64,000 bases of DNA, from the NCBI GenBank assembly GCA_044892525.1, contig CM097885.1:218674001-218738000 (forward strand), given 5' to 3'. A program made the position numbers and the translations under genes. Each line of letters opens with the position of its first letter. The stretch's first letter is position 1. The stretch is from Schmidtea polychroa (taxonomy: Eukaryota). Below are positions 12,130 through 61,214 of this stretch, one piece after another. A model generated the notes under the pieces. The model saw only the letters and a program-made list of their open reading frames with translations. It was not told where the DNA came from and searched no databases.

Positions 12130-12266
12130 AAATAATAATAATTATTCTAAGAACTTTTAATTCCAATTTCACCACTGATTTTTTTCCATTGAATTTATTA
12201 AAAAGAGCTTGAAGACTATAAATCATTAATATATCAAAATCATCGATATAATATTGATTTATAGTC
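12130..12266. repeat. copy of a palindromic (hairpin MITE-like) dispersed repeat; other copies about 25790-25895 and 48020-48165
   Basis: Shared motif aagaacttt...aatttcaccactgattt.tttccattg.atttattaaaaag...aatca.taaatatatc; both arms are visible at 48020-48165. Confidence 0.65.
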
Positions 12267-12423
12267 NNNNNNNNNNNNNNNNNNNNNNNNNNNNNNNNNN
12301 NNNNNNNNNNNNNNNNNNNNNNNNNNNNNNNNNNNNNNNNNNNNNNNNNNNNNNNNNNNNNNNNNNNNNNNNNNNNNNNNNNNNNNNNNNNNNNNNNNNN
12401 NNNNNNNNNNNNNNNNNNNNNNN
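12267..12423. other. assembly gap (157 N) that cuts a host FN3 exon
   Basis: Run of N. Confidence 1.
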
Positions 12424-12595
12424 GAAAATGTTTAATTTTTGCTCCATCTGATAATGTGGGATTACCCCAAGATACTCGAATTGAATTGGCAACCATTGGA
12501 GTCAAATTTGTCAACGGAGGTGAAATACAGCCGGGCCATATACATTTTACAGTATTCGAAGGTTTGCTATTGTATTTCTCTTCATAGCTGATAGC
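12424..12595 (-). CDS. host multi-FN3 gene exon (runs into gap)
   Basis: TTTAG acceptor, phase 0; AISYEEKYNSKPSNTVKCIWPGCISPPLTNLTPMVANSIRVSWGNP (FN3 A/B strands). Confidence 0.8.
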
Positions 12596-14960: not shown

Positions 14961-15449
14961 TAAATTAGAGAAATTATATAAATTTTTATTCTATGTAAAC
15001 GGGTGTACAAGATAAGTTGCTTATGTATGTTTTTAATTTTTTATATTTTCTTTTTTATTTAGTTTTTGTATTTGGAGATCATCAGAGAATTATAAAATTC
15101 AAGACTCTAGAATTTCCCAATCACTTTTGAAAAATATACATTTTTTTCTCTTTAAAAATGTAATGTTTCCGTAGTGGTGTACGCTCATCGGGAAACACTA
15201 TTGTAGATGGTAAGTATGTCTTATAAGGTTAAAATTGAATAATATTACATTTATTGCATTTTACATTAAGTAAAAAATAAAGTGTTTTTTGTGTTCAAAA
15301 TAAAACTATAAAAGCTTTCAAATTTCTCAAAATTCCACCTTAAAAATGTGAAGTGTTCCCAAGATGCCATGACCCCATGTTGGGGAACACTGTTCTAAAC
15401 GTTTATTCTATGAAATAAATTAACTAGAATAAAATATTTTTAGACATAC

Positions 15450-15783
15450 TTTAATTGTAAGTTCGGTGCTTCCAGGACTGTATTTGTTTCCAAATATAAT
15501 TGCTTGGATTTCTCAATTAGTTGGTTGCCGTTATCAAATGCCAGAACACGAAAAGCATATTTTAAACCGGGCATTAAATTTTCAACTTCGTAATTAAAAG
15601 TTTTTGAATTTGATATAGATATCTTCTGCTCCTCAAAACCTTGAATGCATTTCCATACAATCTGATATGAATATATATCCTCATTTAATGACTGGGGAAT
15701 GGTCCAAGATAATGCCACAGTGGTGTCAGTATTTTGCGTTGCGTTCAAACAAATGCAGTTCCCAGACAATTCCGATTCGGTTA
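15450..15783 (-). CDS. host multi-FN3 gene exon (complete FN3 repeat)
   Basis: TVALSWTIP...YQIVW...YEVENLMPGLKYAFRVLAF; TTTAG acceptor, GTATGT donor, phases consistent. Confidence 0.88.
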
Positions 15784-16163
15784 CTAAATTCAATTTGCGA
15801 TTCATAATGAAAAATCATTTAAAATTTTCAAAAATATTTGCATAATGAAAATAAATTTTAATAGTGAAAAATATATTCAAAGAATGTTCAAATGAATTAC
15901 AATTTTTTAATAGATCGTTCAAATAAGCATTATAAGTATTAAGGAAAATACTTTATTTTGAATTTTTAAGGTAAACCAAGAATTCACACAATAACCAATA
16001 ACACTTTGATTAAAATAAAAATGTTTCCTATTTTCCCGTGTGATTTGGGTACTTAATTGAACTATTTATATAAAAGTTTTGACATCTTCTTAAGTGTGCC
16101 ACTACTAGTACCATAGCAAACAGTTGACAAAAAATAAGGTAATAGAAAGTTCGATTATTGACT

Positions 16164-26243: not shown

Positions 26244-26289
26244 CTATTAATTAATTAATTCATTAAGCAAAATATATTAATAGTTTAAC

Positions 26290-26619
26290 CCAGATAATAA
26301 ATTTGTGAACTTAGTCATTCTCGCATTCCGATCCAGAACTTGTTTGATAATAGAATTCTCATGAAAACATGAAACGCCAAATTGTTTCAAAAAGTTTTCA
26401 TTTGTGAATTCATAAATATCCCAGTTCAGGTCAATATCATATTTATCCTTGTTATTTATTATATTAGAAGTGAGAGATTTTATTGCTCCTTGAACTGATT
26501 GATTAATAGTAACAAGCAATTCGTCAGAACAAGATTCGTCTAATCCAAGAGCTTTCGGTATATTTTCATCCAAGTTAGAAAATAAAGAAGTAATTTCTAT
26601 TTTTGGAATGTAATCAGGG
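26290..26619 (-). CDS. host multi-FN3 gene exon
   Basis: TTCTAG acceptor, open frame PDYIPKIEIT...LNWDIYEF...NLLSG; a 46-bp intron follows if GG|GTTAAA is the donor. Confidence 0.7.
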
Positions 26620-27592
26620 CTAGAAAATAAAATGAAGGTAAATTGGCTAGAATTTTATGATAAATATGATATCTTAAACTACAAAGTAAAATATAACAAA
26701 ATGGAATTGGTAATAGAATTTCCTGAACTGCATTTATAAATAGTGTTTTAAACTTTAATTTATTTTCATTCCTTTATCTTCATTTCCTGTATGAATATCA
26801 ATAAAATAAAACATTAATCTAAAGTCTTCGAAGATAAAAGAAACTGAAAAAAAACATGATGAAAATATAAAATAAATATTCTATTATTAATTTGAGAAAT
26901 CAAGAGATCAAAACTATTAAATAACAAGATACCTTTCAGCTATCAATACTGGAGTAAAAGGATGAAATTTGAAAATTTTATAAAAGAGATTTGGAAGCAA
27001 TTATGATATCATTTTTATGTTGTCCGCAGAAATGAGCTGTTTTGCAAATATTTAGAAATATAGGTTCTAATAGTTATGGAAAAGTGGCTCTATAATAAGT
27101 GTATACTACAAATTCTTTAGTGAAATATTATTATTAATTTAGGAGAGTAAAAATTTAATCAAGAAGCCTCGAGAAGTCTAAATTATAATTGTAAAAATTA
27201 TAGTGTATACCGACCCCAGCGATTGCAAAATATCAGTGGGTGAAAATTTCATATTGCCACCTTTGATTTTAAGAAATAATAAATTATTAAGATTTACTTG
27301 TCCATATAATAATACCAAATTATTTTATACTAAGAATAGTAAACATAAATTTTAAAAATAATGATTCATGCAAAATATGACGCCTTTGTGGCGGTCAAGC
27401 ATTGTATATGCCTACTACTAGCCATGGTGTATATCAATGATGGTACCAAGTGAGATTTCGAGTTAACGCGCAAAGCTGTTTTAAATCAGCACTAATCTAG
27501 CTTACGATATTCCTTAATTGGTTTTAGCCTAAAATACTATGTATTAAATTACATGTTCCAATAAGTAAAATAGATCTCCAAGTAATTATTTA

Positions 27593-28447
27593 TGTTGGGT
27601 TTTTAATGCAAGTCGGTACTACGGTCTGACTCCTTTGTGTTCTTTTCCAAATAAATAAATAAACAAATAACCCAACACAAAATCTTTATTGACACTGATG
27701 CAGTTACACTTTTACACTTGTATTAGTTTACTCACACTTGATACAATCAGGTTTTGTCTGCACTTTTCAATTGCCAACAAATCTCACACAGGGGTAGATC
27801 TTCCAACGGGAGATATCCCTTTCTGGTACGTTCGATTTTTTTTTTATATGGTTTACTTTCGACTAACTTTGATATTTCCTTTTTCACTCGCGTCAACCTC
27901 TGTTTTCTTTTCTTCGACCAACTGGCATTTTGTTTTCTTGTCAGTTGCTTTTATACTCGCTTGTTAATTGACTTTATTTTTGCCAATTATTTTTGGTTTT
28001 ATTTCCCCCGGGCTTCCTCTTGGAGGTCTAATTTAATTGAAGGGAATTTGCTCATTTCCTTTGACGGCGCTTTTTATCCGGCTAAATTAATTGCCTTCCC
28101 GAAATTGGATTTCTCAATTCGCTCGGGTTTTCCATTGTATCGGGTTTCCCATTAGCTCGGGTTCTCCATTAGCTCGGGTTTCCCATTAGCTCGGGTTTTC
28201 CATTAGTTAATTAATTTTTGTTTTTTTGTAATTTATTCCTTTTAGGGACCCCCCATTGATTTTATTTTATTATAGCTGAACTCGTCTCATTATTCAGCAT
28301 CCGCCCATACCAGTTTCCCCCAGAAAATATTCATTTTTAAAATTTTGATTTTTTAATTAATATTTTGTACTTTAAATTTTTATTTTGAATTTGGTGTTTT
28401 TGTCAATTTTCACCTCATTTTTGTGCCTCTCTTGTTGAACCCCAACA
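27593..28447 (-). repeat. 3' LTR (855 bp)
   Basis: TGTTGGG...CCCAACA; differs from the 5' LTR by 2 substitutions and 1 homopolymer indel that I could see. Confidence 0.97.
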
Positions 28448-28461
28448 TATTTCCCCCCTTT
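28448..28461 (-). other. polypurine tract
   Basis: AAAGGGGGGAAATA immediately before the 3' LTR. Confidence 0.92.
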
Positions 28462-30625
28462 AATTTAGATTCGACCTCGAATCTGTACATTTCTTATGGT
28501 TCAAACAACAACAACAATAGTACCAATACTAATAACAATAACAAAATAATAATAATGTTCTTATAGTTGAAATAACAACAGTGATAGCAACAGCACTTAC
28601 CATTACCATTACCATTATTAAATTATTATAATACCAATAAATTGAGATGAATTTTTAAATGTAAAGGGTGAATGTAAATAAAACATTGAAATAAAAAAAA
28701 TTTGCTTAGAAATTTTCAAAAATTTTACCTAATAGATTTTTGTTGGATTATTTACAAGACAAAAAAATATTAATGTAAAATTTGATAAATTTTCATAATT
28801 AACTATAAAAATATTTGCAATTATCTTAAAATAAATATTTCCCAACAATTAAAACTGTTGAAATAAATTTCATTTTTGTTGATTAAAACATTCTTGTATT
28901 TATTGAAATTAGAATTGATGAAATTTCTCTATTAGTCTAAAATTACTTAGTTGAAAGCTCATTGATATTAATCAGTTTAGTTAAATGCCCAGATGGGATG
29001 AGGCAAATTCATCTGCTGTGTCAGTGGCAGAATTTCAGTGGGCCAATATCGAATTACTCAATTAGATTGCAGTTGAGGGCAATTAAATTATTTACGAAAT
29101 TGGTTTGCGCTTTTGACGGGAGATTCAAAAAGAAAATGATAATTAAATCCACCCATCATCCGATTGAATTTTTTTTTCAAATCTACAATTTGGACAACTA
29201 ATTCAAGGGTAATTTAATTTTGTTTCGCAAAATAGATTTATTTTTTTTTCTTCTTTCAGTTCTTACACGAGATAAGGAGAAAGCCAATCAGAAGAAAGGA
29301 GGGAAGAAACGAATTTTTTTTACTTTATAAAGGCAATCACATTTCCATATCATTTTTCATTGTTTTGTTAATTTTGAAATTATTACCATAGAATATTATT
29401 ACCTGATTATACCGAAATTATAAACAGATTATTCTTAGTTAACATAGAAATATAGTTGGACAAAACTAATAATAAAGTTCGTAAATAATAATTTTATTTT
29501 ATTTTGTTTTTTTCATTTCCCTCTTAGATTATAGATATTTAAACAGAATTTTCGGCACTGGCTTTTACAAGTGTTTGGACAAATATAAAACAAAATAAAT
29601 GATCAACAATGCAAAAAGGAAATGAATATTTTACAGCTTTTGTTTTTTCACACAGACAATCCGAAAAATCACCCCCGAACCGACGGCGCACCGTCTCATC
29701 CACTCCGATCTGACACAGCCGATGTGGACAGCCAAGCCCCCACCCATCGTTGGCTTGACAAATATTAATTTTATTTTTTGAAGTTAATTTTATATTTATG
29801 CATTAAAGTAAGTAAATTTTCTTTTCAATTGAATTTAATAAAAATTTTTGTAAATTTTCTTTTTGATTGAATTAGTATATAAAAATCAATGCAATGTTTA
29901 TAATATTTTGAAACCAATTATAAATTCGTATAATAAACTGCTAATGAATTTCCAACACACATGTAAGTTGATGTGTAAATGATTGAGAGGTTTTCTTTTT
30001 ATTATAGGCGGTTTTATTAAGTGAAACATGGATAATAGTAACAACAACAACAATAATACTAACAATAATAATAATAACAAAACATAAACAATTCTGAAAA
30101 ATTAAAAATTAATTATTTCATTTTAAATAAAAGTTCATCAAAATATTTTCAATTTTCAAATCAAAATTTCTGAAATTTATTTTTTCCCTTAAACTTTTGT
30201 GTCTGTTACTGAAAATGAAATTTGATAATATTTCAACCGAAAATTAGTCGATAAAAACGTAGACATTTTATTTTTGACTAATTAAACATAACAAAACATC
30301 TCAATGCTTTATACTGGAAGATGGGAATGAAATTGTCTAATGAATTTTTAATAATAAATTGTTATGATTTGTGACAACCTGTTTATGTGGCTCTTTAAAA
30401 CTACTCATTTCCAATTGTTGTCCAGGGTAGCCAAACCCCGACAATTGGAAATGTGTTTGTTGTTATACACAATAATAAGTTTATTTATTTATTTAATCAT
30501 TTATTTACTCTCAATTATTTACTTATTTATTCTTATTTTTGGGGTCTAACTGATGCGCTGCCAATAAATACATGAGACAAAATCGAGTTCACAATTATTT
30601 ATTTTATAAATACAATATATAAAAA

Positions 30626-32095
30626 TTAATCCATCTTTATTTCTAATCGTTTCGTTTCATGCCGATATCGTATTATTGTCTCTTCGCGTTCATATACTAC
30701 ACCATTGACAGTGACAGTGTCTCCGACATCAATGTTCGAAGTTGTTTTTCTCTTTTTGGATTTTCTACATTCTGGCATTGGACCATATTCAAGTGTTGGA
30801 TGTATCCTTATCATCGAAATGCTTTCCATTAATGCGACACCTTCTTCCGCAATTTCTAAGAATGATTCATTGGCCCACTTCACTTGAATCAATGGATTTT
30901 CATTATCCATCGTCACATTCTCCTCGAATGTTAAATCAATTTCTTCAGATTCCATTACATCTTCAATTGGAATTTGCGTTAGTTTTTCCGGTATTGCAGT
31001 TGATGTTGATTCAATTTCCCGAAGCTTCTTATATTCGTCCCACGAATATCGCTTTGACGGTTGATTTTTGGGCATCGGTATGTCATCAATCCATTGACTT
31101 TCTACTTTCTGGTATACCTTGCGTATACTTTTCACGTCCTCGAGAGCCGAATGAATACTCATCTGAGTCTGTTCTCCACATATTTCTTTCACCACTGTTT
31201 GTAATTTGAACCATTCTCCCCTTATGGTTACTCCCATGTTCTGAAGTATTGGTGCTGCTGCTAGATCTCGAATGCCGTACAATTGTTCAATCCATATCCC
31301 CAAGTATTGTAATTCTGCATGTAAATCATGGCCGATCAATATCTTGCCCACTGTCAAGCGTTGAATTTCTTTTATTGCCACGTATTGATCACATTGGTTC
31401 CTGCTAGCCACTTCTGTAATTCCATGGATCCTTGAATTAAAATGTCGGATTTTTCCTCTTGGAGTGAGGTATACATCTTTTACTACTTTTCCATAATAAT
31501 TCATAATTGCTATTGCTAAAGGGATCATTTTCCCTTGGTCTGATGTGCCATATTCAGCATCAATGAATAATATTCTATTGCGGATTTCTTCTAGATCCAT
31601 TTCTTTTCGGAGAAACGACATTTTCTTTTTCAACATTTCCTTTGAAATTTTCAATAACATTGGGTCTTCTCCTTCAATTAGATGCATCTGTGGTACCTCA
31701 TCCGCTTCATTCTCAGTTCTGATTTCCACCACCAACGTTGTCTCCTCATTCGCTGCTCGTAGTGTTCTCCACATGAAGTCCTTCTGCAGCTTCCATGATG
31801 TGAATTTTCGGAGTTGCCACCATATTGTATTATCGTTCTTCAGCACTTCCACTGTACCTCTGATCACGTGTATGTGATATTCTTCCTTCTGAGACAACTC
31901 AATTTCATCTGTCAATTTCAATTCTGAATTTCTCCTTATTGTAAACATTCGTATCTTCATTCTTCTGTCATCTATCCGCAAATAATTTGGAATTTGTAAA
32001 TTTTCATTGATTTCGTATAATTGTTGGCTGGCATGATTTTTCTGCATCTTGAAGTAACTGTCGTAGGTGGATCTTGCCCATTGTACTTGTTCCAT
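30626..32095 (-). CDS. proviral accessory ORF (489 aa) with ISG20/REX4-like DEDDh 3'-5' exonuclease domain
   Basis: ILFIDAE (Exo I), IHGIT, KILIGHDLHAEL (Exo II), HSALED (Exo III) with ISG20-like spacing; intact ORF; TTTTAG acceptor with 5 nt between it and the ATG. Confidence 0.85.
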   Translation of the reverse strand: MEQVQWARSTYDSYFKMQKNHASQQLYEINENLQIPNYLRIDDRRMKIRMFTIRRNSELKLTDEIELSQKEEYHIHVIRGTVEVLKNDNTIWWQLRKFTSWKLQKDFMWRTLRAANEETTLVVEIRTENEADEVPQMHLIEGEDPMLLKISKEMLKKKMSFLRKEMDLEEIRNRILFIDAEYGTSDQGKMIPLAIAIMNYYGKVVKDVYLTPRGKIRHFNSRIHGITEVASRNQCDQYVAIKEIQRLTVGKILIGHDLHAELQYLGIWIEQLYGIRDLAAAPILQNMGVTIRGEWFKLQTVVKEICGEQTQMSIHSALEDVKSIRKVYQKVESQWIDDIPMPKNQPSKRYSWDEYKKLREIESTSTAIPEKLTQIPIEDVMESEEIDLTFEENVTMDNENPLIQVKWANESFLEIAEEGVALMESISMIRIHPTLEYGPMPECRKSKKRKTTSNIDVGDTVTVNGVVYEREETIIRYRHETKRLEIKMD

Positions 32096-32527
32096 TTTTG
32101 CTAAAATAGTTATAATTTAACGTTTGAATTTAATTTACTTTTAAAACTAGGGCTGAGATGAAGTATCCGAAGGATACTGTCCCAGCTACTAGCTGTATAA
32201 ATAATAATAATAATAATAATTACCGTTTAGTTAATTGTTGATATATTTTTTTTTTTTGAAAATTAATGGAGTTTAATGGATTTTACCCTCTTTTAATACC
32301 CTTATGAAAATTCCCTTAACCCCGTTTTTCTCTCCCCCTTAACACAGCGCTAACCAATCAAATTGGTTCTTTCCGTTGACATTGAAAAGTGCAGATTCAC
32401 AAGTAAAATAAAATGAAATATTGATCATATCCATAATGAAATAAATATTAATAATATCCATAAAATATTTATACTATATTACTACTACTACTTTATCAAT
32501 TTTTGCATGCAAAGTATTTATGTCTTA

Positions 32528-34602
32528 CTACACAAATGTTTCTTCATAAACGATCCAAGGTCTCGCAATCTCGGATCGATTCGTAGAAGATTTGGGTATT
32601 GTTCGAAATTCAATTAGCACAATGATAATGAGAATAATGAGAGAGATTGTTATAATGAGAGTAGTTATTAATAATGTTACACACACAATTTCACTGTCAG
32701 TTTTTAATGACGATATGGTTTTGTTATTAGTCATTGACTCATTGATGCTAGAAAAGATGATTACGTTGACAGAGCTAGGGGTTCGGTTGGACTGATTTGA
32801 TTTGTTTCGATTTCCATACTGCGAGTTAATAGATGGAATTTGCACAATTTTATTTTCCACTAATGTTAATTGCCATAAATTTGAAAATAGAGAACGTCTA
32901 TAGTATTTTATTTTAATGAACACAAATTTTGACGTCGATATTGGTGAACGTTGACGAAAAGTTAATATTTGAGATTTATTTTTTTCATTTAATATCGATT
33001 GAATTTTTCCATAATAATATAAAATAGCTTTTTGATTGGGCTCCGCTTGTCGGGTAACATTCACTAATTGATTGAAAATATGAAAAGTAACCCGATTTGT
33101 TTCATTAACTAATCGTATCATATGTTGACTAGAGTGTATTCTGATCCATTGACTATCAATTTCAGTTCCGTTTTCATATAAAGATTTTTCATAATAATGA
33201 ATCAGAATATTATAGTTATGATGTACTTTTAAATTTGCATACTTTATAAAGGGTTTTCTGCTATTCAATGTATCTATCGCATAATTTTGAAAAACTGCTT
33301 TTACTTGTTGGGATTCCTGGGGTTCCCAAAATATGTCAATTCCATTTACCAGTGGTTCAATTGATACTCGATTATGTAATCTCTTTGTCCAAATATTAAT
33401 ACGTATAAGATTTTGTATTTTTGTATTATTACTTTTCGAATCCAATTGCGTAATTAACCAAGGGTATTCATAATTCATTGTTAATTGTCTAGCCACATAA
33501 ATATTTTTGGTGCTGTTCAATTTTATTGGGGGTTCGAAATAGTTTATTAGATTATCTATCTCTATTTCTTCTGCTCCTCCAGCATAATAAACCCAAACTA
33601 TTTGAGTACATGTTGAATAAATATGAACTTTGTCTAATAATACAACTGTATTAGTTGCATATAACGGGAATACTCTCACTGCATTTACTGACATTATATT
33701 GATAATCATTACTGTTGTAATCAATAAAACTTTATTGATGTAACTCAATGGAGCAGGGTTTTTTGTAAACTTTTGTTTAATTACTGGGTTCCTTGCATCT
33801 TTATTTGGTTTTGATCTCAATGGATAACGTGATTCATCTTCTATTATCTTCTTGCATCTGTTTACATGAACGATGATTGTCCCAGCCTTTTTATTGTTTT
33901 GTGGACGCAATTTTAAGTTAGTCTCTGTCGTATCACACACTAGATATGGTCCTTTAAACGGTCGTTGCAATTTCGTTGACAAGCCTTTTGTTGGTTCTGG
34001 TTTGTTTATATACACGAGATCTCCAATTTTAATGTCATGCGCCCGTGCGCGTTTATCATAGCATTCTTTATACGCTTCTTGATGATGCCTTATGTTAAGT
34101 CCAGCTTGGATCCATACTGACTGTAGTCTTTCATGCATAGCTATTTTATAATCTGACACATCCATATATTGGGAAATAGGTGACTGAAATTCTAGATCGA
34201 CTGGCATATTGTTTCGCCGTAGATACATGAGATAAAAGGGTGTTTCTCCAGTGCTTTCATTTACTGCATTCCGGTATGCAAATAGGCATGGTTTAATGAA
34301 TAAATCCCAATCCTTTTGTTTCCTATTTACATAGGATGATATCATATTAATTAGTGTCCCATTAAATCTTTCAACTAGACCATCTGTTTGTGGATGATAT
34401 GGTGAGGTACTAAGTTTTAATATACCAAATAAATCTGTGATTGATTTAAATAATTCACTCTGAAAATTTGTTCCTTGATCTGTAAGTAATTTCTTTGGTG
34501 CTCCGTATCGAAAAATAATATTCTCCACAAATATTTTCGCAACTGTTTCTGCTTTCTGATTTGGCATTGCATAAGCTTCTGGCCATTTAGTAAGATAATC
34601 GC
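32528..34602 (-). CDS. polyprotein C-terminal part: integrase core and GPY/F, then signal peptide, glycosylated ectodomain and TM anchor
   Basis: DYLTKWPEAYA, LLTDQG, HPQTDGLVERFN, FKGPY, IVHVNRCK; then VLLITTVMIINIMSVNA and IVCVTLLITTLIITISLIILIIIVLI. Joined to the upstream ORF by restoring one T in the run at 34603-34607. Confidence 0.9.
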
Positions 34603-37600
34603 AAAAACGATAATGTATTTGTTGCCATTTGTTGTTTCTGGCAATGGACCAACGATGTCCATTGCTGTCATTTCCATTGGCGCCTTTGGCACTGGCATAG
34701 GCTTAAGCGGAACTTTTATTTTCCGTCCCGTATTTCGTCTTGTTAGGCATATCTCACACGTATGACACCATTGTCTGACATCTTGTTCCATCGTTTTCCA
34801 ATAATATTTCTGTTTCAATCTTGATAATGTTTTTCGCGCTGATAAATGCCCTCCTAATGCTCCATCGTGATACAACAACAGCAATGCTTTTCGATGTTTT
34901 GTCGGAACAATAATTAACAAATTTTCATTTTGTACACATTTTAACAAACCATCATGAATAATGTATTTATGGTTCTCTTCGGCAATATGTTTCCAGTCAC
35001 TCTCCTTTTTGATTGAGACAGCATGTTGACGTAACTGATTTAATTCCTCGTCATTTTCCTGATCATCTTGTAATTTTTCGATATTATTTACCGTTTTAAT
35101 TGCCAAGAATATTGTATTTTCGCAATTTTTCTCATCTTGATCAACATTATTTTCTACGGGTATTCTCGACATAGCATCCGCATTTGCATTTGATTTTCCT
35201 GTACGATACTTTATCTCGAAATCATATTCTTGTAACGCAATTGACCACCTAATTAATTTACTGGCCGAATCTCTGTGCTTCATTAGCCATTGTAACGGAT
35301 TGTGATCTGTAAAGACGACAAATTTTCTGCCCACTAGATATTGTCGAAAAGTAGTTATCCCATATACCAATGCTAACGTTTCCTTTTCGATTGTTGAATA
35401 ATTCTTTTCATGAGGTTTCAATGATCTGCTGGCATAAGCAATTACATGATCTTTTTCCCCTTCTACTTGCTGTCCTAATACCGCGCCTAATGCGAAATTA
35501 CTGGCATCTGTCATTAATATAAACGGTTTTTTAAAGTTCGGACATCTTAATATCGGCTGTTTTATTAAGCTTTCTTTGAGTTTATCAAACGCTTCTTGCT
35601 GAGCTGTTGTCCATTTAAATTTTGCTTGCTTTTTCAATAACATGTTCAAAGGTTGTGCTACGTGTGAGAAACTTTTAATAAACTTTCTGTAATAACTGGC
35701 TAATCCCAGAAATTGTCGAACCTGATCTACATCCTTGGGAATAGGATATTTCCCAATTTTTTCTACATTTTCTGGATTTGGTTGCAAACCTCGACGCGAA
35801 ATGATATGACCCACATAAACGACTTCAGATTTCCCCCATTCACATTTGGAGGGTTTTATTTTTAAGTTTGCTTCTAACAATCGCTTGAATACTGTTTCCA
35901 CATCCTGCAAATGTTCCTGAAAACTATTCGAAAATATTATAATATCGTCAATATACACTAATGCATGTGGTATATCGCGCAAAACAAAATTCATACCTCT
36001 CTGAAATGTAGCAGGTGCTCCTGTTAATCCGAATGGTAACACGTTAAACTCATATAGACCCTTCCCATCTGAAAATGCAGTTTTCCTTCTATCTTCCTCT
36101 TTGACTTTAAATTGATTGTATCCTTTATTAAGATCTATTACCGTAAAATATTGCACCTCCCCCATCTGATCGAACATTTCCTGTGGAACAGGAATAGGAT
36201 ATGTATCTTTTCTCGTTACTTGGTTCAATTTTCGATAGTCGACACAAAATCTTAAATCACCGTCCTTCTTTTTAACTACTACTATTGATGATGAGAATGG
36301 TGAGGAACTATCTCTTATTATATTGAATTCTTTCATTGCTTTGATTTGCCGATCACTTTCTTCCTGATGTATGTATGGTATTCTGTACGGCCGTAATTTT
36401 ATTGGGGTTTCGTTGAGTAATGGTATTTCATGCTCAATCACCTGAGTGAGTCCCAGATCATACTCATGTTTTGCAAATACATTTCTATATTTCTTTAATA
36501 ATGCACCGAATTCTTGTTTTTGCAAATCCGTCAAATCTTTGCTTGTGATCTGAGGTTCTTTATAAATTTTTATATTTCTCGGTAACTTCTGAGCTTCCTC
36601 TGATTTGATTTTTGTTAATTTTCCCAATTTGGTTTTGGGTTTTATCTCAACGGATCTTGCACTATAATTCGCTATTCTAACTGGTACTGACTTATTTTGG
36701 ACTTTCACTACTTCATCACACATAGGCACATCGTATTTTTCAACCAGCTTTTGATTTGGCTCAAATATGTACTCCTCATCTGAGACCCTCATAACATCTG
36801 CATAGTATATTACTTCGCTTTTTGGTGGTACTTCCAATGTTTGGTTTAGAAATACCTCTCCTACTTCAGGCACTACTTCACCCATTTGTCCTTTTATTAG
36901 TTTTCCAGTTCTCAGATCAAGAGAGATTCCATGTAGTTGCTCCATGACATCCATGCCAATTAGACATTTTACAGGACTTTTTCTCATCACTGATACCCAA
37001 TGAATTATTTCTTGCTCTCCAATTATCAGTTTAACTTCTAATTTTCCAACAATATTTAGTGCATTATGTGACATTGATTTAATAATGTGATTCGTTGGTT
37101 TTATTTTGGCTTTCTCCTGATACGTCAAGAAACTTTCCGCTACTATAGTATGACTTGAGCCTGAGTCTAATAAAGCTTCCACTTTTCTCTTGTTAAACTG
37201 TATGTTTATTCGAGGTTGTTTTCCTCCTACTACTGTTGTCATTAGTGCATAGCTGCATGGTAGACCAAGCATATTCTTTCTTTCAATTTCAGCACTCGTT
37301 GGTTCAATCTTCTCTAATTCGATTGTGATATTATCTACAGGTTTCATTTCTTTTAATTGTTCATTTGGATATATTGGTGCTGTTGGTCTAAATGTCGGGG
37401 TATACCATCTACTAAGAGTATCAATCCCGCTTAATTTTGGCATTGGTTCAAGCAAGAACCTGGACTCTGGCTCTACTTTACTCTTTATTACACTTTTTCG
37501 AAAGCATTTATACTCCGATTCCCCGTTGTTGTTATCATCATTATGATCGTCGTTTTTATCTTCCGACTGACACGTCGATTCCTCACTTTTTCGGCCATTT

Positions 37601-40600
37601 CTTAATTGTGCCCTTACTCTTGCCATTTCTTTAAATTGATGATCTGTAATAAAGAATCTAGCCAACAATGGAATACAACCAATAACTAATTTCCATGACC
37701 ATCCCGATATTGCGTATATTCGATGTACTGACAACATTTGCGACACTACCACCTTTGCCGTTATCATAATCACGTAAATTCCAATTAAACCTGCACATGC
37801 TTGTCCCAAAAACATGAACTTGCCCCAAATCTTTTCCATCGTTTTATATGTAGCTCGTTTGAAATGATCAGGTGTTAGCAAATTTTCGTAATTTACTGTT
37901 CCTTCTCCATTCGGTAATACTGTGTCAATCATTTCTGAAATTATCCGTTCCTTTTTGGATGGAAACAACAAATTCCTTTGAGCTTCTTCGATATCTTCGC
38001 TTGCATACAAGCCCATTTGTGCCATTTTGTTTAGTGATGTGAAATTTATCAGGTATTCTAAATTTGTTAATTCTAGTTTGTCTGGAGTCTTGACCCCACG
38101 ATAATCTGGTAAGGCTATCCATGAGTCTGTAGCTAATCGGTATAAAGGGGCTAATAATCGATTGCATTGCAAAAGTTTTGGTTTAGTTTGTTCATCAAGC
38201 AAGATTCTAGTTATCGGTTCCATAAATCGTACCTTTCCCCCAAAGCTTACTGGTAATTCATTCGTACATTTTTCGTATTTGGCAATTTTCACTGTGACTT
38301 CTTTGCATTTGTAACTGTATAATGCTTCTCCAAATATTCTCGCAAACACTCCATTTTCTGATATTAGCATAGGTGCTACTAAATTTGGATTCGTAATTGC
38401 CATCGCCATCCGATTTCGGAGAATCTCTTTATTCAACTTACAATCGTTCAGAATCATTTCTCTATATACATTTTCCATGATGTTTTGACTAAAATGAAAC
38501 AAATAATCAATTTTATTATTAAAATAATGAGTAAGTTTAATGTCATCTCTGTGAATTTTAATTTTTGCTTCTTCCACAACATTTCTAGACACGTAAACAC
38601 CTTTATAATTTGTTACATATACCATTCGACCACATTTATTTGTGATTTCCTTTTTTATAAATCGCATTCCATCTGCTGGTAACGTAGACATTATAACTGT
38701 TCCCATTTGCTTTGTCCATACTGGGGTTGATTTAATGGTATTATTTGGTCTATAATTCATAGTGAAATTATCTGGTTTATCTCTAAACTGTTCTCCTACT
38801 AGCTCTTTAAAGTTCATAGTTTTTAAGTGCGCTAAATTACACTTATTTGTTTCTACATTATAAACAAGAATCGATTCCCCTGTTTGACAATGTGTTTGTT
38901 TCATATTACAGAATGGATGAGTTTGTAATTTTCCCGTATCATCATCGAAAGCTCCTTCGAACTCTCTCAACTCCGTGAGATACTCTTCTAGCACCACTGT
39001 TTGCTGAATAATTTTACCGTTCATTTTATATGGTTCACCTTCACAGTCGCCATTTGCTTTCATTACTCCCTTTACAATTATTGTTTCTCGTATTCTATGG
39101 TTCAATTTTGCCTTTAAACGAATTTCTGGACTTATTTTTAATTCTCCTGTTTGAAATGCTGCTAGACAGTTTTCTGGAAGCACCTCGACTGGCCTAGGTA
39201 TCGCATGCATTTTTATGAGTGACGTATGGCTCCATTTACCACAATAGAATACAAATGTTGTATGTTTGGCAATACACTCTCTCACTTGAGTTCTTCGCAG
39301 ATCAGACTCTTGATACACATAATATTTTACGTCATTTTCTATTTTTAAACTGCTCGGATACGCACCTGGGCATTCCGACATATCTACTACCGAATAGACT
39401 TTTCCCATTTCAGTTTGGGAACAATCGTACGCAACTAAAGATGATGTCTGTGTAATTATTGCACAAAACGTAATCACCATAAACATCGCCCATGGAAATA
39501 TCATAGTTTTTCTTAGTTCTGGCTTAACTCTTTCATTTACTCGTCTTTGGGGTGGACTCATTTCTTGCTTCTCATTTTTCTTTTCTGTTAGAGATGAACA
39601 CAGTGTTTTCCAACCACCTTTTTCGTTTACCCAGCTCATTAAATATTCGTTTACTAGCCGGGCAGCGATGTCTATCAAATTTTCTAACTTGTCGGACCTT
39701 GCGAACGTATGCGTTCCAATTTCTAAAACAACATAAGTTAAAGCTATTATTATAACTTCCTTATTAATTTCATTTTTTGCCAAATTTTCAATTACTGATC
39801 TCTCGCAGAATGTATTCTCTTCGCCAAATTTCTGCATCACTTCAGGAAGCCTATTCTTCATCTCTTTAACTATTTCTTTCAGTTCATCCTCTACCTCTAT
39901 TTCTATGTCGAACATTGGATATACTGCTTTAACGAGATGTTTCAACATTTTCTTAGTTTCGTCGACGTCCTGTTCTAGCCTCACTAAATATTTCTTTATT
40001 TCATATAAAGTTCTAACTTTCTTATTTTTGATTTCACCATTTATTTCGCCTTCAGGTACAAGTGGCTCTCCTTGTACGTCTGGTTCCGTGGACTGATCTT
40101 TGTTATCAGGATCTTTTTGCTCATTATCACTAACGATTTCATCAATTTCTTTATTTCCCTTAACTTTTTCATCTTGTTCCTCTGTGTCAGGCTTGTTAGA
40201 CTCAATATTTACTTCTAAACTCACTCCTTTTACTACGACTATATGGTTCACTAAATATCCCACTCGTCCATCTCGGATCAAATATCCGTTTTCATCCAGC
40301 TCTTGTGGTACACACCCACAATCATATAGGTATTCATCATCGTCAAGTTCTTCACCTTTGTACATTACTATAATAATTCCATCTTTTCCCAGCGTTTCAG
40401 CCGCTCTCTTCCACAATTTTCGGACCTTTGCACACCAATGCTCGTCTACATATTCCGTTTTGCCATATCCCTCATAATCTAATGCTATCAAAAATGGCTT
40501 TAACTCTACTCTTGCCTTTCTGAGCTCCTTGCCCAACCTTTGCAATAAACTTCTTAATAACTTGGCATATCTGGTTTTCACATGTAAATATGGTCGTATT

Positions 40601-42717
40601 GCATTCACTATTTTTAGTTTATCGTTTTCCTCCATTTCTAATTTCTCAATAATCTGTAACTTCTCATTGATTTCATCTTCATCTCCAATATATAACGCAT
40701 CATTTAATTCCTCTAATATCTCCCTTGAATTCCTTTTGTCTATTATTTTACTACTCATTATTTCATCACTAGTAATTACATTTTCCATTTTTAATTCATT
40801 TGTACTTCCTGGAATAAATCCACAATCTACCAAAAATTCGTCATTTTCTAACAATCTCTCATTAAATCTCAACTCTATCATGCATCCTTCCTTTTTTTCT
40901 TTTAATTTATTCTTTAAATCATTTACACAATCATTTGCCTCACAACGACAACATAGTACACTTTTATCAATCTCGTTTACTACTTCCACCAAGATGGAAT
41001 CTAACCCTGTTTTCTCTCTCAAAGCTTTTCCAAATATTTTCATTAATTCTTTAATTTCTTCTTTATACCTTGGATTCATATTATAGTAGTTAACGCACAA
41101 GCTAATTACACTTTTTATCTTTCTCATACTCAAAGATATTTGACTTAATTCTCTCAACGATTTGATCACTTTAGCCGACTCTATTTCATTATTTCCGATT
41201 AGTTTTTCGATTCTGGTCATTATCATTGTTGCTTTTTCACTTTCTAAATCATCTTTTATAACTCTCCTTTTCGACTCTTTTTCATTCAATTCCTCTTGCG
41301 ACTCATACATCATGTGATTATTGTAGTCCTCTTCTGATTCAAACTTTGACATCAATCGATCCAAACGTCGACCCATTTCTCTCACTTCGCTTTCAATTCT
41401 TTCATTAAAATTATCTGGCTGAATAAAAGCTACATTATCCATCTGCGGTTTGTCACTCTGAAACCTAATCGATTTCTTTAATATGGGCCTTTGGAATTTA
41501 TCCACATTTCTTGGACATGATCTAGCCATGTGTCCATAACTTCTGCATGAATGACATTGAATTTGTCCTTGTAGATTTACTTTATCTCTCTGCGGTGATG
41601 GTGAAGTTGATGTTGATCTTGACCTGGCAAAACAATTTCGTGACACATGCCCTTTTCTTCCGCAATTAAAGCATTGTAAGTTATCATTAGTTCTCGGCTC
41701 ATTAATGTTCGCTTTAGTGAAACTTTTCGCACCATTTCCTTTTAACCAATCAGGCCACATTTGCCTTGGACTCCGTTGTACATTATTTTTGGACCAGCAT
41801 TGATTGCTGTCATGTCCCATTCTTTGGCAATTATCACACTGAATCGGAATTGGGCTTCTCTGTACTCTATTTTTAAACCAGCATTGGTTAACATGGTGTC
41901 CAATCCTTTGGCAATGACTACATTGGATGGGACCTTCCTTTCCATCTGTTTGAATATCTGTTGACTTGTTCGACTCAAATTTGGATCTAAATTTTGGTGA
42001 TGGACTACTTGTTTGTTGAAAACGATTGTTTCTAATTGGGGTTACTGATCTTTCGCTTGCGCCTGAGATGACTGCAAACGATTCTGATTTTGACTGTGTG
42101 CTTTTTAAATTTAGCTCAATTTTCATTGCCTTTTTGATCAATTCATCAAAGTCATTAAAATCAACATAGCATAGAGCCTTTTTAATTTCTTTCTTTACTC
42201 CTGACAAGAATTGATCCTGCAATAATTCTTTTACCTGCTTTGCCATCTCGGCCTGTTCTGGTTTCACTTCGAACGCTTTCTCTGCAAGAGTTGATAAATG
42301 ATAAGCAAACTCACTTACCGATTCCTCTGGCTTTTGTACGCGGTTATAGAATTTCTGTCGCATTATCCGTTTGATATCCCCTCCGATTAATTTCGTAGCT
42401 AAAGCGTCTTTCAACTTGGTCCAGTCATTTGCTACTATTCTTTTATCAATTTGTTGCCACGCTTCTCTGGCTGCTCCTTTTAGGTATAGCGGTAATCTTT
42501 GCACCATTATCGATTGGCTCCATCCATAGGCCGTCGCATACATATAGTAATCTGCCATGAAATCGACAAATTCCAGCGGATCTCCACCGTACTGATCCAC
42601 AGGTAGTTTTTGGCAACTCGCATAATCATTGCCTTCCCTGGCATTCCCCACAGAAACTGTGGACACCGGTGTTTCATCATTATTATTTGTATTATTAACT
42701 TGTCTTTGGGTACTCAT
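34603..42717 (-). CDS. Gag - accessory domains - Env-like glycoprotein - protease - RT - RNase H - integrase N-part polyprotein
   Basis: First ATG at 42717; LPLYLKGAAREAW and FYNRVQKPEESVSEF (gag), 4 x CX2CX4HX4C, AYDC glycoprotein, LLDSGSS (PR, D at 37165-37167), LRFCVDYRKLN and YIDD (RT), TDASNFALGAVL (RH), H..ALGGH..C..C (IN zinc finger). Confidence 0.95.
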
Positions 42718-43100
42718 TATATTCTCTACTAGTTTTTGGCTTCTCAATTTATAAAATGATCTGGTTAACACAGGTTTTACTCGTCTAAAATTTAAAGTAT
42801 TACAATTACAAAATTTACCTTTCGTTTTAATTTTGACTTTTCAACAATCACTCGTTACAAATTTTCCCACTTTGCTTCAATAATAAATTCACCACTTTAA
42901 TAATTCTCGAATAATGTTCACCACTTTCAAATAAACGTTTCACTTCAATATTTATTTATTTAATTATTATTATCTTTTTCCAAATTTTTTTTTTTTTTTT
43001 TTCGATACTTTACTAATCTCAACAAATTTTCACCGACCTTTTTATTCCTCGGTATCACTCAAATATTATCACAATTTCAACAAATCTTCACCGACTTTTG

Positions 43101-43118
43101 ATCACGTCGGGCTCACCA
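43101..43118 (-). other. primer-binding site for tRNA-Trp
   Basis: TGGTGAGCCCGACGTGAT, 4 nt inside the 5' LTR boundary; 17/18 to the avian sarcoma-leukosis virus tRNA-Trp PBS TGGTGACCCCGACGTGAT as recalled. Confidence 0.85.
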
Positions 43119-43214
43119 AATATGTTGGGTTTTTAATGCAAGTCGGTACTACGGTCTGACTCCTTTGTGTTCTTTTCCAAATAAATAAATAAACAAATAA
43201 CCCAACACAAAATC

Positions 43215-43220
43215 TTTATT
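43215..43220 (-). terminator. LTR polyadenylation signal (also 27685-27690)
   Basis: AATAAA about 95 nt before the LTR end; AATAAA at the equivalent position in the diverged LTR near 52515. Confidence 0.6.
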
Positions 43221-43476
43221 GACACTGATGCAGTTACACTTTTACACTTGTATTAGTTTACTCACACTTGATACAATCAGGTTTTGTCTGCACTTTTCAA
43301 TTGCCAACAAATCTCACGCAGGGGTAGATCTTCCAACGGGAGATATCCCTTTCTGGTACGTTCGATTTTTTTTTATATGGTTTACTTTCGACTAACTTTG
43401 ATATTTCCTTTTTCACTCGCGTCAACCTCTGTTTTCTTTTCTTCGACCAACTGGCATTTTGTTTTCTTGTCAGTTG

Positions 43477-43484
43477 CTTTTATA
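43477..43484 (-). promoter_or_regulatory. LTR TATA box
   Basis: TATAAAAG downstream of the U3 tandem repeats and upstream of the AATAAA. Confidence 0.65.
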
Positions 43485-44327
43485 CTCGCTTGTTAATTGA
43501 CTTTATTTTTGCCAATTATTTTTGGTTTTATTTCCCCCGGGCTTCCTCTTGGAGGTCTAATTTAATTGAAGGGAATTTGCTCATTTCCTTTGACGGCGCT
43601 TTTTATCCGGCTAAATTAATTGCCTTCCCGAAATTAGATTTCTCAATTCGCTCGGGTTTTCCATTGTATCGGGTTTCCCATTAGCTCGGGTTCTCCATTA
43701 GCTCGGGTTTCCCATTAGCTCGGGTTTTCCATTAGTTAATTAATTTTTGTTTTTTTGTAATTTATTCCTTTTAGGGACCCCCCATTGATTTTATTTTATT
43801 ATAGCTGAACTCGTCTCATTATTCAGCATCCGCCCATACCAGTTTCCCCCAGAAAATATTCATTTTTAAAATTTTGATTTTTTAATTAATATTTTGTACT
43901 TTAAATTTTTATTTTGAATTTGGTGTTTTTGTCAATTTTCACCTCATTTTTGTGCCTCTCTTGTTGAACCCCAACATTTATGACAATGTGTAAATTAATA
44001 GTGACAAAAGCAAAAGGCAATTTTTAGTCAATGATCCTTTGAAAAAATTAATTTTTAAATAATATATTATTTATTTTGAATATCATTATTTGATTTGATT
44101 TAATATATTTTATTTATTAATTTTATTAAGCAGAGGCGTTAAAAAGAATTTAAAAAACGAAAATCTATCAAATGACGTTCATTTTTCTAAAATATCTTAT
44201 ATAAATGACTTTGTTTTTTTTTAAAAAAGAATGTCAAAATTTAAAAAAATGTAAAATATTCAAATCTATTATTAATTTCATGTATAAATAAATTTAAATT
44301 ATTTTGTTTTTGTTTAAATACCCAAGA

Positions 44328-47229: not shown

Positions 47230-47843
47230 TTTATCAAAGAAGAAATCTTTACTGAATTTCTTCCAAATTTACATTTAGTTAATTTTACAGAAAGAACATT
47301 GGGTTTCAGTGTGGCATGGAGTTTATTATTCACATAAACCCGATACGCTTCTAATCGATGGCGGATGAAATCCATTGACTGGTTATCGCTGTCATGGACG
47401 ACAGTTGTGTACATCAAAGGTTGCTGCCAATTAATGTAAATTGTATTAGAAACAATCTTTGAACAAGTTAAAAATTGAGGAGGCGAAGGACTCGTTTTGG
47501 TTCTTGCAAACAATGGGACTTTGCACGGATAATGAGTTGTTCGACGATTATCATCATCATTATCAAAATTGTCACGAAATTTATCAATATTTAGAATTGT
47601 TTTTATGCTAACAACAGCTTCCACGTCTATTCTATACATGGTGGCTGGTAATAATCTATCCAAATCTGCTATATGACAGTATTTATCAACATTTATACAG
47701 ATTGATGATTGCTCTTCGGAGTTATCTTTGCCTGAATGAGTTATTTCAGAAATTCTGATAACTTGAGATAAAAGGCGATTTGTTCCATTTACTGATGGAA
47801 GACTCCATTCAATTTTAATTTTATCTAGAAAAGTTTCTTGTAC
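47230..47843 (-). CDS. host multi-FN3 gene exon (about 1.5 FN3 repeats)
   Basis: TTTCAG acceptor; KIKIEWSLP, LDRLLPATMYRIDVEA, SPSPPQFL..TIYINWQQP, YRVYVN. Donor position ambiguous; AA|GTAATT fits the phase. Confidence 0.85.
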
Positions 47844-52625: not shown

Positions 52626-52864
52626 TAAATATAAATAAAAATTTAATTTTAAAAACTTAACAATTTATTACTGATGTTATATTTATTATTATATTTATTA
52701 ACCCATTTAACAAAATTAATTAGTCAATTCAGACATTAATTTTCAGATGGAATAAGCTCAATATTTTTGTATTGACGAAATGCATATTTTTGAAAAAAAC
52801 ATTTGAAAGCTAATAAATTTAATAAATATAACTTTGTAACAAAATATAGTTAAAGAAATCTTAC

Positions 52865-53123
52865 ACATATATTTTTTGGTGGAAACGTACCCGCAGTGTA
52901 AGCCAGTATATTCACACTTACAACCCATAATTTATCTCCGATTATAGAGCCATCTTCATTCAATTCCAATTTACTAACTGACTCTTTCTTGAAATTATTG
53001 GGCAACGATAAAAAATATTCTTGTGTAACCGCAAATAATCTAAAATTGTATTCGACATTTTCCGTTAAATGATTGATAATCACATTTTTTGCATCTGGTG
53101 TTAGTTCAAATGTTTTGCATTGT
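52865..53123 (-). CDS. host multi-FN3 gene exon
   Basis: IINHLTENVEYNFRLFAV...TAGTFPPKNIC; TGT|GTAAGA donor. Confidence 0.85.
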
Positions 53124-54249
53124 CTAAAATAATAAATATTTAAAATAATACTTAAAGAAAAGGCTCTGAAATCTTTTAAAAAAACATGGATCAATGATTG
53201 AAACTAAATGAAGATAAATGAAATTATTAAGCGAAAAACAGATCATAGGTGAGTATAAAGATAAATAGTTTTGTCTTTTAATTCGCAATAATAAATGGTG
53301 TAAATAATATTTTAAATTAATTAATTAATTTGAAATTTTGAATTTAAACCTTTTAAAGTTTACCATTAATTTAAAATTATCTTATGTATATTTGATTTTA
53401 TTGTGACCACCTGTTTTCACTTTTCCTCCCGAAATATGTTGATTTTAATGTCAAAGATTCAATTAAATTTAGAAAATTAATTAATAAAACACTAACAAAA
53501 GTAACAAAATGGGAAATGTTTTGGGAAAAGATATTTTACGAAGGTTCGATTTCGTTAGATTTGTTTCACAGTTGAGATTGTCATCGTTATTACAGCCTTG
53601 AAATGCTTGATTTTGTATAGAGCAAACCGAATTCATTTTTTTGGTATCTTTTAACTTTAAATTCGTGGATGACTTTAGATTTTTATCCTTAGAAAACTTT
53701 TAAATTCAAATTTCTATCAAATTGATGTAACGAATTGTTAGTATCTTCCAATAACTTATCTTCTGTGACAAATGAACCATATCCCAATTTGTAAATGAAA
53801 TCTAAACGGCTTTTTATTACATCGGTCGAAACTATTCCTTCACTATCTCTTTGACATTTGAGTTAGAATCAAGAATTCTTTTTATTTATTTTCATTGAAA
53901 AATTACCAAATGATTCAGTTTTCAACGAATCCATTTCACATAATTAAAATAATTCATTAAGTTAAATCTTTCAAAAACTTTATTATTAAAATAAAACTAT
54001 TTTTTAAGATAATTTCACAAAAAACAAATAATATTCTTCAACATAATATATATGTAAAGAATAAGATCTATCATCCGCACAGTATATACTATAAATTAGG
54101 TCTTATTTTATATATTCACACAAATACAATGGCAAGTGAGTGCATTTTAAAAAATTATAAATGTTTCTTAAAGAAAATGATTCTTCAATAAAATAGAATA
54201 TTTAATATCACCTTCAAAGGAATATTTAAATCACGAATTCAAATCTTAC

Positions 54250-54466
54250 TTCAAAGATTTTTGAGAGCTTTCACTGTAATACATTACTAATAAAACGATT
54301 TCACTTCCGTATTCAATTGGACTATCCCATTGTAACGCAATAGAGGAACATGTTGCTGACACGACGCAAAGATTTTTCGGAGGTGTCGGAGGGGCGGAAG
54401 TTTTAAAATTCAATTTTATTGGATCGCTACTTAATGTAATTTTGTGATTAAAACATGATCTAGATT
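54250..54466 (-). CDS. host multi-FN3 gene exon (acceptor 54466 or 54459)
   Basis: KTSAPPTPPKNLCVVSATCSSIALQWDSP; AA|GTAAGA donor. Confidence 0.82.
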
Positions 54467-54511
54467 CTTATTAAAAAATTATTTAAATTGTAAAATATAA
54501 CGTAATGATAC

Positions 54512-54610
54512 TTTCTTCATATATTTCTTTAAAATTGTTAACACTTCGACCTTCTAGCACAGCTGTATAGTTAGTATTCGGAGTAAGGTCAGTTATATAA
54601 ACCATTGAAT
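54512..54610 (-). CDS. host multi-FN3 gene exon
   Basis: SMVYITDLTPNTNYTAVLEGRS; flanked by introns of about 45 and 46 bp. Confidence 0.78.
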
Positions 54611-54656
54611 CTACATTATTTGATCTAATTCTTATTTAAAAAAAATATATAATAAC

Positions 54657-54761
54657 CTTTTGTTGAAATACTGCGTACATCAAAGTTGTCAGGGTTTGCT
54701 GAATTCCACCACGTCACTTGAAAATGATCAGGCGGTATAAAATGATGTTTCTTTTCTGTTA
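54657..54761 (-). CDS. host multi-FN3 gene exon
   Basis: CTAACAG acceptor; VTEKKHHFIPPDHFQVTWWN; phase-1 ends match both neighbours. Confidence 0.72.
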
Positions 54762-57041: not shown

Positions 57042-57116
57042 CTTTATTCCAAGCCAAGACAGCACCAAAACCATTTACTGATTCCACTTCGAATTTAGTT
57101 GGAGAGCTTACTAATC
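57042..57116 (-). CDS. host multi-FN3 gene exon
   Basis: ACAG acceptor, G|GTGAGA donor; LVSSPTKFEVESVNGFGAVLAWNK. Confidence 0.8.
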
Positions 57117-57385
57117 CTGTGTAATGAATAACTATTTTCGAGCTTGGTGCATTGTTATTATCTAATATTTAAATATTACAGAACACGAAATAACTATTCT
57201 ATAAAATTAACTTTAGACACACATATAACAGATCGTGTGAAGAAAGATATAAGAATTTACAAAATAGAAGTTCAAAACTATTTTATAATAGCAATTAACA
57301 TCGTCCAGGTTTCTGATGGTAGCAATCAAAATAAAATATTCTCATCCTCTTTTAAATGAAAATGTCTATAATTTTCTTCCATATA

Positions 57386-60389: not shown

Positions 60390-60683
60390 TAATCTGAAAG
60401 AAATGAGGATTATTATAAATGAAAATAAATCAAAAGTCATGCATACAAAAATATTTTAATGAAACTTTTACTTCCTCAAATACATGAAGACCTCATTAGA
60501 GGCAAGATGTCTGAGAATGTTGATGATTTGAAACTAGAAATTATTGAGCGCGTAATGAAATGTGGCAACACATCAATAATATATGAAAATATAGATCCAT
60601 GATGCTAGTTTTGAAATATAAATTACTTTAAATATTGTTTTCCTAGTCTATTAAAAAAGAAAGATGTCCTTTAATTGTGGTTT

Positions 60684-60920
60684 NNNNNNNNNNNNNNNNN
60701 NNNNNNNNNNNNNNNNNNNNNNNNNNNNNNNNNNNNNNNNNNNNNNNNNNNNNNNNNNNNNNNNNNNNNNNNNNNNNNNNNNNNNNNNNNNNNNNNNNNN
60801 NNNNNNNNNNNNNNNNNNNNNNNNNNNNNNNNNNNNNNNNNNNNNNNNNNNNNNNNNNNNNNNNNNNNNNNNNNNNNNNNNNNNNNNNNNNNNNNNNNNN
60901 NNNNNNNNNNNNNNNNNNNN
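60684..60920. other. assembly gap (237 N) that cuts a host FN3 exon
   Basis: Run of N. Confidence 1.
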
Positions 60921-61214
60921 TAATGTTATCAATTGCAATTCAACTCGGCTGCCCAGCATTATATCTTTTATCCACAAATTGTTGACACTGCTTGGAATAA
61001 TATTGCTTCCATAAACAAATCCATTTTTTAAAATTCTATATCCAATGACATGATAGTTGTCAGTTTCCTCGGGAGAATCCCAATTCAACAAAATTCCCTT
61101 GGAATTCATTGCTTCAATGCGCAAAAGAGCTGCATCGGGTGGTTTAAATCCAGAAATGATAATTGGAGAAGATAAATTGGAATGAGAATAACAATAAACG
61201 ACATTTTCTTCATT
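60921..61214 (-). CDS. host multi-FN3 gene exon (runs into gap)
   Basis: TTATAG acceptor; FKPPDAALLRIEAMNSKGILLNWDSP...VIGYRILKNG...IMLGSRVELQL. Confidence 0.85.

Follow-up and report, generated by a model that had tools for sequence, protein, structure and literature searches.

Planarian Burro elements are the closest described counterparts of the retroelement analysed here. As set out in section 7 of PMC6431247, they carry a BCL2-like motif preceded by a Ubi2/SUMO-like motif, with an in-frame mononegavirus-like env between BCL2 and the protease, and the link of the Burro BCL2 to apoptosis is called worthy of experiment (PMC6431247). With gag-Ubl-BCL2-env-pol described there for planarian Burro, the existence of the domain in such elements is already published and not a new finding, and the original prediction was wrong to hold that Bcl-2 is not known from LTR retroelements. 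A further paper (PMC13465017) cites a 2026 study in which the RING-BIR region (IAP) of Burro1 protects stem cells. No functional test of a retroelement Bcl-2 domain was found in the literature searched. New here are a compact family without IAP, MATH or ankyrin cargo, one likely capture of the domain by the elements, and a stepwise loss of its groove signature.

The compact element lies on the minus strand of a 64,000-nucleotide stretch of Schmidtea polychroa contig CM097885.1, referred to below as the window. It shares with Burro/GYPSM1, as described in PMC6431247, a Gag with CCHC knuckles, ubiquitin-like and BCL2-like parts, a mononegavirus-like env, protease, reverse transcriptase (RT), RNase H and integrase, all in one polyprotein. 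In contrast to Burro, it measures 16.4 kb rather than over 30 kb, and its frame comprises 3437 rather than about 4,800 residues. Moreover, a Pfam search of its three frames yields no MATH, BIR or ankyrin, and by the published description it further departs from Burro in having two ubiquitin-like (Ubl) cassettes and in having lost the BH1 arginine. For the dUTPase-like region between protease and RT, Pfam returned no match in the window element; the method used in PMC6431247 was HHpred. Because the size and cargo features of Burro are missing, we file the element as a compact Burro relative rather than as Burro proper, a separation drawn from the published description; Burro-2, -3, or -4 may themselves be of the compact type.

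The whole Ty3/gypsy LTR element (27593..43976, minus strand) spans 16,384 bp, is flanked on both sides by a 4-bp target-site duplication, and is touched by no stretch of N. LTR comparison delimits a 5′ LTR at 43123..43976, adjoined by a primer-binding site at about 43103-43120, and a 3′ LTR at 27593..28447 with a purine tract ahead of it (about 28448-28462), all on the minus strand. We take the primer-binding site to be that of tRNA-Trp, judging from the 3′ end of this tRNA. Between the two LTRs there are 2 differences in 857 aligned bases and one 1-base gap; this near identity, together with the flanking target duplication, indicates a young insertion. Searching the genome with the domain returned 1554 candidates; the 150 scored copies are all 98–100% identical across the domain, four of them have a stop inside it, and about 20 retain the 3437-aa open frame (by-eye count). 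The window copy itself is interrupted inside integrase near 34.6-34.7 kb, the rest of its integrase and a second predicted glycoprotein being encoded in a frame at 32528-34702 (minus).

The insertion site is an intron of a host gene on the same strand. Exons of this gene (12119-12595, 15440-15814, 26277-26654, 47230-47840, 52862-54761, 57042-57162, and 60651-61214, minus strand) appear fibronectin-III-like by eye and are spliced in run X1 within a 9.7-kb contig; to the right of the element this splicing is seen in X1, and the left side holds similar exon-like frames. Besides the present element, the introns contain several hAT-like and other transposon remnants. Sequencing runs guessed as RNA cover the element, and since the family is multi-copy, their contigs cannot show its expression. 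Spliced host transcripts are present in run X1; loose poly-T ends in run X3 fall on A-rich places of the element sense strand and are not counted as expression.

A single minus-strand frame of 2807 aa (34417-42840) encodes Gag through the start of integrase: zinc-knuckle Gag comes first, followed by two helical plus ubiquitin-like cassettes, the Bcl-2-like domain, a hydrophobic leader, the fusion glycoprotein, protease, RT, RNase H, and the integrase start. Gag, with four CCHC-type zinc knuckles recognized from the sequence and by PF00098, occupies 41500..42717 (minus, as are all element features below). Each of the two tandem cassettes (40231..41238) joins a helical region of no assigned family to a ubiquitin-like domain. 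The cassettes are 22% identical to each other (E 1e-6), and their profile matches ISG15/ubiquitin in the PDB (best E 2.9e-4) and Pfam ubiquitin (E 0.002); no family could be assigned to the helical half. The Bcl-2-like domain follows at 39586..39972, as delimited by Pfam, profiles, and fold comparison, with helix 1 at about 39922-39963. Next comes the predicted internal signal peptide of Env (39436..39510; hydropathy 1.99 over 19 residues), which is found at the same position in all lineages described below and has a putative cleavage site. It leads into a fusion glycoprotein of the Monjiviricetes type (37726..39435; PF24664, 291 bits), whose C-terminal membrane segment is placed by hydropathy at 37726-37821. 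Protease, RT, RNase H, and integrase lie at 33740..37221.

After integrase, a second predicted signal peptide, a sequon-rich ectodomain, and a membrane segment are encoded at 32531..33739. This ectodomain holds 11 N-glycosylation sequons in 331 aa compared to 0–0.9 per 100 aa in other regions, and hydropathy reaches 1.84 in the signal peptide and 3.24 in the membrane segment; Pfam gave no family match for the ectodomain. The same arrangement of signal peptide, ectodomain, and membrane segment is common to several lineages (L072, L052, P0003, P0006), and section 7 of PMC6431247 makes no mention of a second glycoprotein. Including it, the polyprotein is predicted to cross the membrane four times. 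The element further contains a separate 496-aa frame (30626..32116), which by eye looks like a DEDDh exonuclease from its motif; Pfam returned no exonuclease match. This accessory frame is conserved between families, with relatives in family B (L052:2328-4676) and at L057.

The three segments quoted in the original prediction all fall in the one minus-strand frame (residues about 985-998, 1026-1038, and 1056-1082), directly upstream of the hydrophobic stretch (residues 1111-1135) and then the fusion glycoprotein. Built from eight host Bcl-2 loci of this genome and free of element rows, a profile gives the domain 37.0 bits; the reversed domain receives 2.6 bits, shuffles reach 10.9 bits at most (1992 of 2000 reported), and none of 37 other polyprotein windows exceeds 4.2 bits. 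Analogously, a profile of 10 element sequences with no host row, searched against the PDB, finds Bcl-2/Bcl-xL chains throughout the matches listed (best E 1.1e-4), and all ten of these sequences match PF00452 at E < 0.05 (best E 3.2e-7). In the suggested HMMER comparison with PF00452, the window domain matches over residues 987-1077 and profile positions 1-100 of 100, but its 21 bits stay below the gathering cut-off of 31.4; with the region isolated, E is 5e-4. The scores from host profile, element profile, and Pfam bear out the claim of a Bcl-2-like domain inside a retroelement polyprotein.

Single sequences recover less. With phmmer, the domain alone reaches Bcl-2 chains of the PDB at E 0.5 or worse, single-sequence searches outside this genome found a relative of the domain in none of 360 candidates, and among 1.84 billion representatives no Bcl-2 protein came up at E ≤ 0.001. 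Two matches in the latter search are repeat-rich proteins, unrelated by inspection. A helical linker that resembles BH2 by chance would also produce scores under the Pfam cut-off and the phmmer result among 1.84 billion representatives; this reading is refuted by the shuffle control and the element-only profile, independent lineages reaching up to E 3e-7 also speak against it, and we assign it a negligible probability. On these sequence comparisons, it is close to certain that the segment is a true Bcl-2 homologue.

Genome searches with PF00452 (909 candidates, 150 scored), with the fusion protein, and with BIR (309 candidates, 150 scored) uncovered four further lineages that carry the domain just upstream of the Env leader, namely A2, C, B, and a giant, giving five in total with the window family (A). 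Identity is 54–57% in A2, 33–38% in C, and 20–24% in B, and the spacing from the BH2 region to the signal peptide, 27 codons in the window element, ranges over 14–42 residues across lineages. The giant is Burro1-like (L097-L099, G000:C1:96629781 onward), with a frame of about 4,790 aa containing MATH and ankyrin, and downstream of it TRAF-zinc-MATH, BIR-RING, and three unassigned frames. Its homologous Bcl-2 domain sits at the same place, its RT-RNase H is 51–52% identical to that of the window element, and an RT tree groups the two against five partial outgroup rows with support of only 74/82. Two family-B elements (L051/L052, G000:C2:60.01-60.03 Mb) form a direct tandem about 12.5 kb apart.

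Purifying selection acts on the domain in most lineage pairs. Over 127 core codons, dN/dS is 0.18 for A-A2 (at a dS of 1.7, near saturation) and 0.12 and 0.17 for the B pairs; the A-C comparison is saturated. The upstream linker shows 0.22–0.37 and Env 0.04–0.06, and constraint on the domain core falls well short of that on Env throughout. For the C pair, the core value of 0.49 (about 27 changes) shows no stronger constraint than the 0.37 of the preceding linker.

The BH motifs follow the predicted pattern of a strong BH2 next to degenerate BH1 and BH3. BH2 (39604-39633) is intact in the window family, and W-x4-GGW is kept in the four other lineages, with Tyr replacing the first Trp in the giant; BH2 is thereby retained across lineages that are only 20–24% identical. 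In the BH1-equivalent (39721-39771), Trp, Gly, and Arg are changed to Lys, Glu, and Val, while the BH1 Gly and Arg are intact in host loci L021 and L028. These two columns read Asn/Arg in the giant, Asp/Lys in B, Asp/Val in C, and Glu/Val in A and A2, indicating that the groove signature is lost stepwise, lineage by lineage. BH3 motifs are built around a Gly-Asp core. At the predicted BH3 this core is absent, and the assignment stands in position only.

A structure model from element sequences alone is poor (pLDDT 46, weak fold search). The second model, from an alignment of 12 element, 2 Maverick, and 6 host rows, of which the host and Maverick rows bias toward the Bcl-2 fold, attains pLDDT 66.8 and pTM 0.60 and displays six helices and no separate helix 3. 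Compared with 48,161 chains, its best 17 of 50 rows are Bcl-2-family members or Bcl-2 chimeras (Z 6.1–7.8, rmsd 3.5–5.2 Å); no Z reaches 8, and unrelated rows occur from Z 6.1 down. In both Foldseek lists against the PDB, every match listed belongs to the Bcl-2 family, with no E reaching 0.001, and the weak matches to Bcl-2 folds of herpesviruses, poxviruses, and adintoviruses likewise include none at E 0.001. The best fold matches of a middling model lie in the Bcl-2 family, which backs the predicted fold, if weakly. By its sequence features, the domain is best described as a Bcl-2 homologue that is not a canonical pro-survival member.

In the domain tree, a branch with support of 97/93, or 91/92 with the giant, separates the element sequences from host and Maverick genes, and Bcl-2 was likely captured once by the elements. 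A splice donor directly follows BH2 in five of eight host loci and the element domains read through that site, which fits capture from mRNA, three host loci also being intronless there. The best host match of the element profile is the intron-bearing L032 (33–34 bits), followed by Maverick Bcl-2 genes (20–25 bits). L032 (G000:C1:268544203) is a host Bcl-2 paralogue with an altered BH1 that resembles the Maverick genes, and it is possibly a shared donor of retroelement and Maverick Bcl-2. Its naming as the donor was dropped, as the tree support of 68/88 is gone once the giant is added, and AU tests left L021 (p 0.117) and L033+L035 (p 0.106) acceptable as alternative sisters. A host Ubl-Bcl-2 gene pair, sought as a donor candidate in six 10-kb stretches of approximate placement, gave no match.

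Among the other host loci, L021-L027 (G000:C4:89.9-90.8 Mb) are a local cluster of seven near-identical Bcl-2 copies with BH1 intact and no intron directly after BH2. L033 and L035 are presumably Bak-like; their BH3 exon was looked for and not found. Further, multi-copy Maverick/Polinton-like elements (L060, L061, L062, L063, L070; e.g., G000:C1:50168106, C1:15405873) carry stand-alone Bcl-2 genes. They have an A32-type ATPase, an integrase, and weak polB matches, and their Bcl-2 adjoins a TBP gene; one family of these Bcl-2 genes has an intron before BH2 and one does not.

Outside this genome, four of 3006 candidates found via the Env region are public polyproteins with the same layout (P0003-P0006), and these contain three or four aspartic-protease-like repeats. 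None of the four gives a Pfam signal for Bcl-2, the element profile scoring at most 0.7 bits, and all four have a hydrophobic leader before Env. Their position in the tree, beside the giant at 81/86, hints that the public relatives lost the domain.

Based on this layout, we propose how the domain might act. The single long frame would be translated, and the internal signal peptide would take Env into the ER lumen. A signal peptidase cut after this peptide would leave Gag-Ubl-Ubl-Bcl2 with the peptide as C-terminal anchor, and the element protease may or may not release the Bcl-2 part from Gag. The Bcl-2 domain would then face the cytosol near the membrane, much like a tail-anchored Bcl-2 protein, and could dampen cell-death or stress signals while Env and particles are being made. 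The predicted double use of the Env signal peptide as membrane anchor of the Bcl-2 domain is plausible from this topology. Because relatives without the domain have the leader too, the anchor would be a by-product of Env biogenesis rather than Bcl-2-specific. As to the contact made, textbook BH3 capture is doubtful because the BH1 Gly and Arg are gone in the window family, and a remodelled or groove-independent contact would be more probable than the Arg-Asp BH3 salt bridge.

We give an even chance to membrane-anchored pro-survival action via such a remodelled surface. It draws support from the homology, the retention and mostly purifying selection, the short distance to the signal peptide, and a clade with Ubl and apoptosis cargo, in which the related giant also carries BIR-RING. 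Observations against it include that all four public relatives do without the domain, that the BH1 Arg is Val, that the core of the C pair is constrained no more than its linker, and that Env is everywhere under much stronger constraint. The narrower proposal that compact Burro-clade elements have a signal-peptide-anchored Bcl-2 as their only anti-death cargo, acting via a surface other than the BH1 groove, is tentative, and we hold it to be rather unlikely.

Other functions have to be weighed against this pro-survival reading. The domain could be a structural passenger, that is, a folded spacer or a membrane-proximal matrix-like domain that positions Gag at the membrane and takes no part in cell death. 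Its place is that expected of a matrix-like tether, its constraint is only moderately above that of the linkers, and its groove signature decays lineage by lineage. Relatives without the domain, however, keep the Gag-leader-Env layout intact and therefore need no spacer, BH2 persists across lineages of such low identity, and the clade gathers other apoptosis and ubiquitin cargo, which makes a mere passenger rather improbable. Action as a canonical viral-type Bcl-2, whose groove would sequester host Bak/Bax BH3 helices with another basic residue replacing the lost Arg, would have candidate targets in the presumably Bak-like host loci L033 and L035. The giant keeps Arg at the BH1 Arg column and family B has Lys there, and poxvirus homologues employ substitute arginines (PMC7719400). 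In the window family, A2, and C, however, the Gly column is acidic and the Arg column holds Val, and the model lacks a separate helix 3; we consider the canonical function unlikely.

A pro-death or pore-forming role of the Bax/Bok/Bid type, for example to release particles, is suggested by BOK, which ranks second by fold in a tie to within 1 Z, and by the language-model look-alikes BID and Bcl-2-like 15/14, which at 0.87–0.91 fall below the recognition threshold. The BH3 core is absent, though, helix 5 and the amphipathic helix 6 bear no special sign of pore formation, and cell killing would cost so abundant a family; such a role is very improbable.

Should the narrower proposal of an anchored Bcl-2 as only anti-death cargo hold true, a retroelement Bcl-2 would for the first time have a demonstrated function, and besides the Burro1 IAP these elements would have a second way of keeping host stem cells alive. 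In a young and abundant family that has the Bcl-2 domain and lacks an IAP, the two cargos come apart, which makes it a tractable test case. Moreover, the Arg/Lys/Val series at the BH1 salt-bridge column provides natural variants for a Bcl-2 fold without groove signature.

Beyond Burro, the element resembles the GAG-ENV-POL Ty3/gypsy elements with HSV/gB-type env described from nematodes, bryozoans, and flatworms (PMC13524379). Both place env between gag and pol, and by Pfam family their glycoprotein class is related to chuvirus/mononegavirus fusion proteins; the terms “Bcl” and “Burro” are absent from the main text of that paper. With the viral Bcl-2 proteins of large DNA viruses and of adintoviruses/Mavericks (PMC11209288, PMC7719400, PMC8502044), the latter known to carry Bcl2 as cargo (PMC8502044), the domain shares a captured fold and eroded BH motifs. 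The BH1 Arg, called pivotal in PMC7719400, is Val in the window domain, and SPPV14, TANV16L, and DPV022 bind BH3 without the usual motif (PMC7719400, PMC11209288). Viral Bcl-2 proteins are encoded by stand-alone genes and have their own tail, whereas the Bcl-2 of the window forms part of a polyprotein and would be anchored by a signal peptide. Such an anchor has a parallel in the rubella capsid, an apoptosis-blocking protein on which the glycoprotein signal peptide remains as anchor (PMC3040668). The retained rubella peptide directs to mitochondria, and protection does not require it (PMC3040668); the ER location in our proposal is for this reason a guess. The rubella capsid is not homologous to the present domain and no Bcl-2 fold is claimed for it, so that the likeness is a functional analogy: an upstream polyprotein product that holds on to the signal peptide of the downstream glycoprotein and counteracts cell death.
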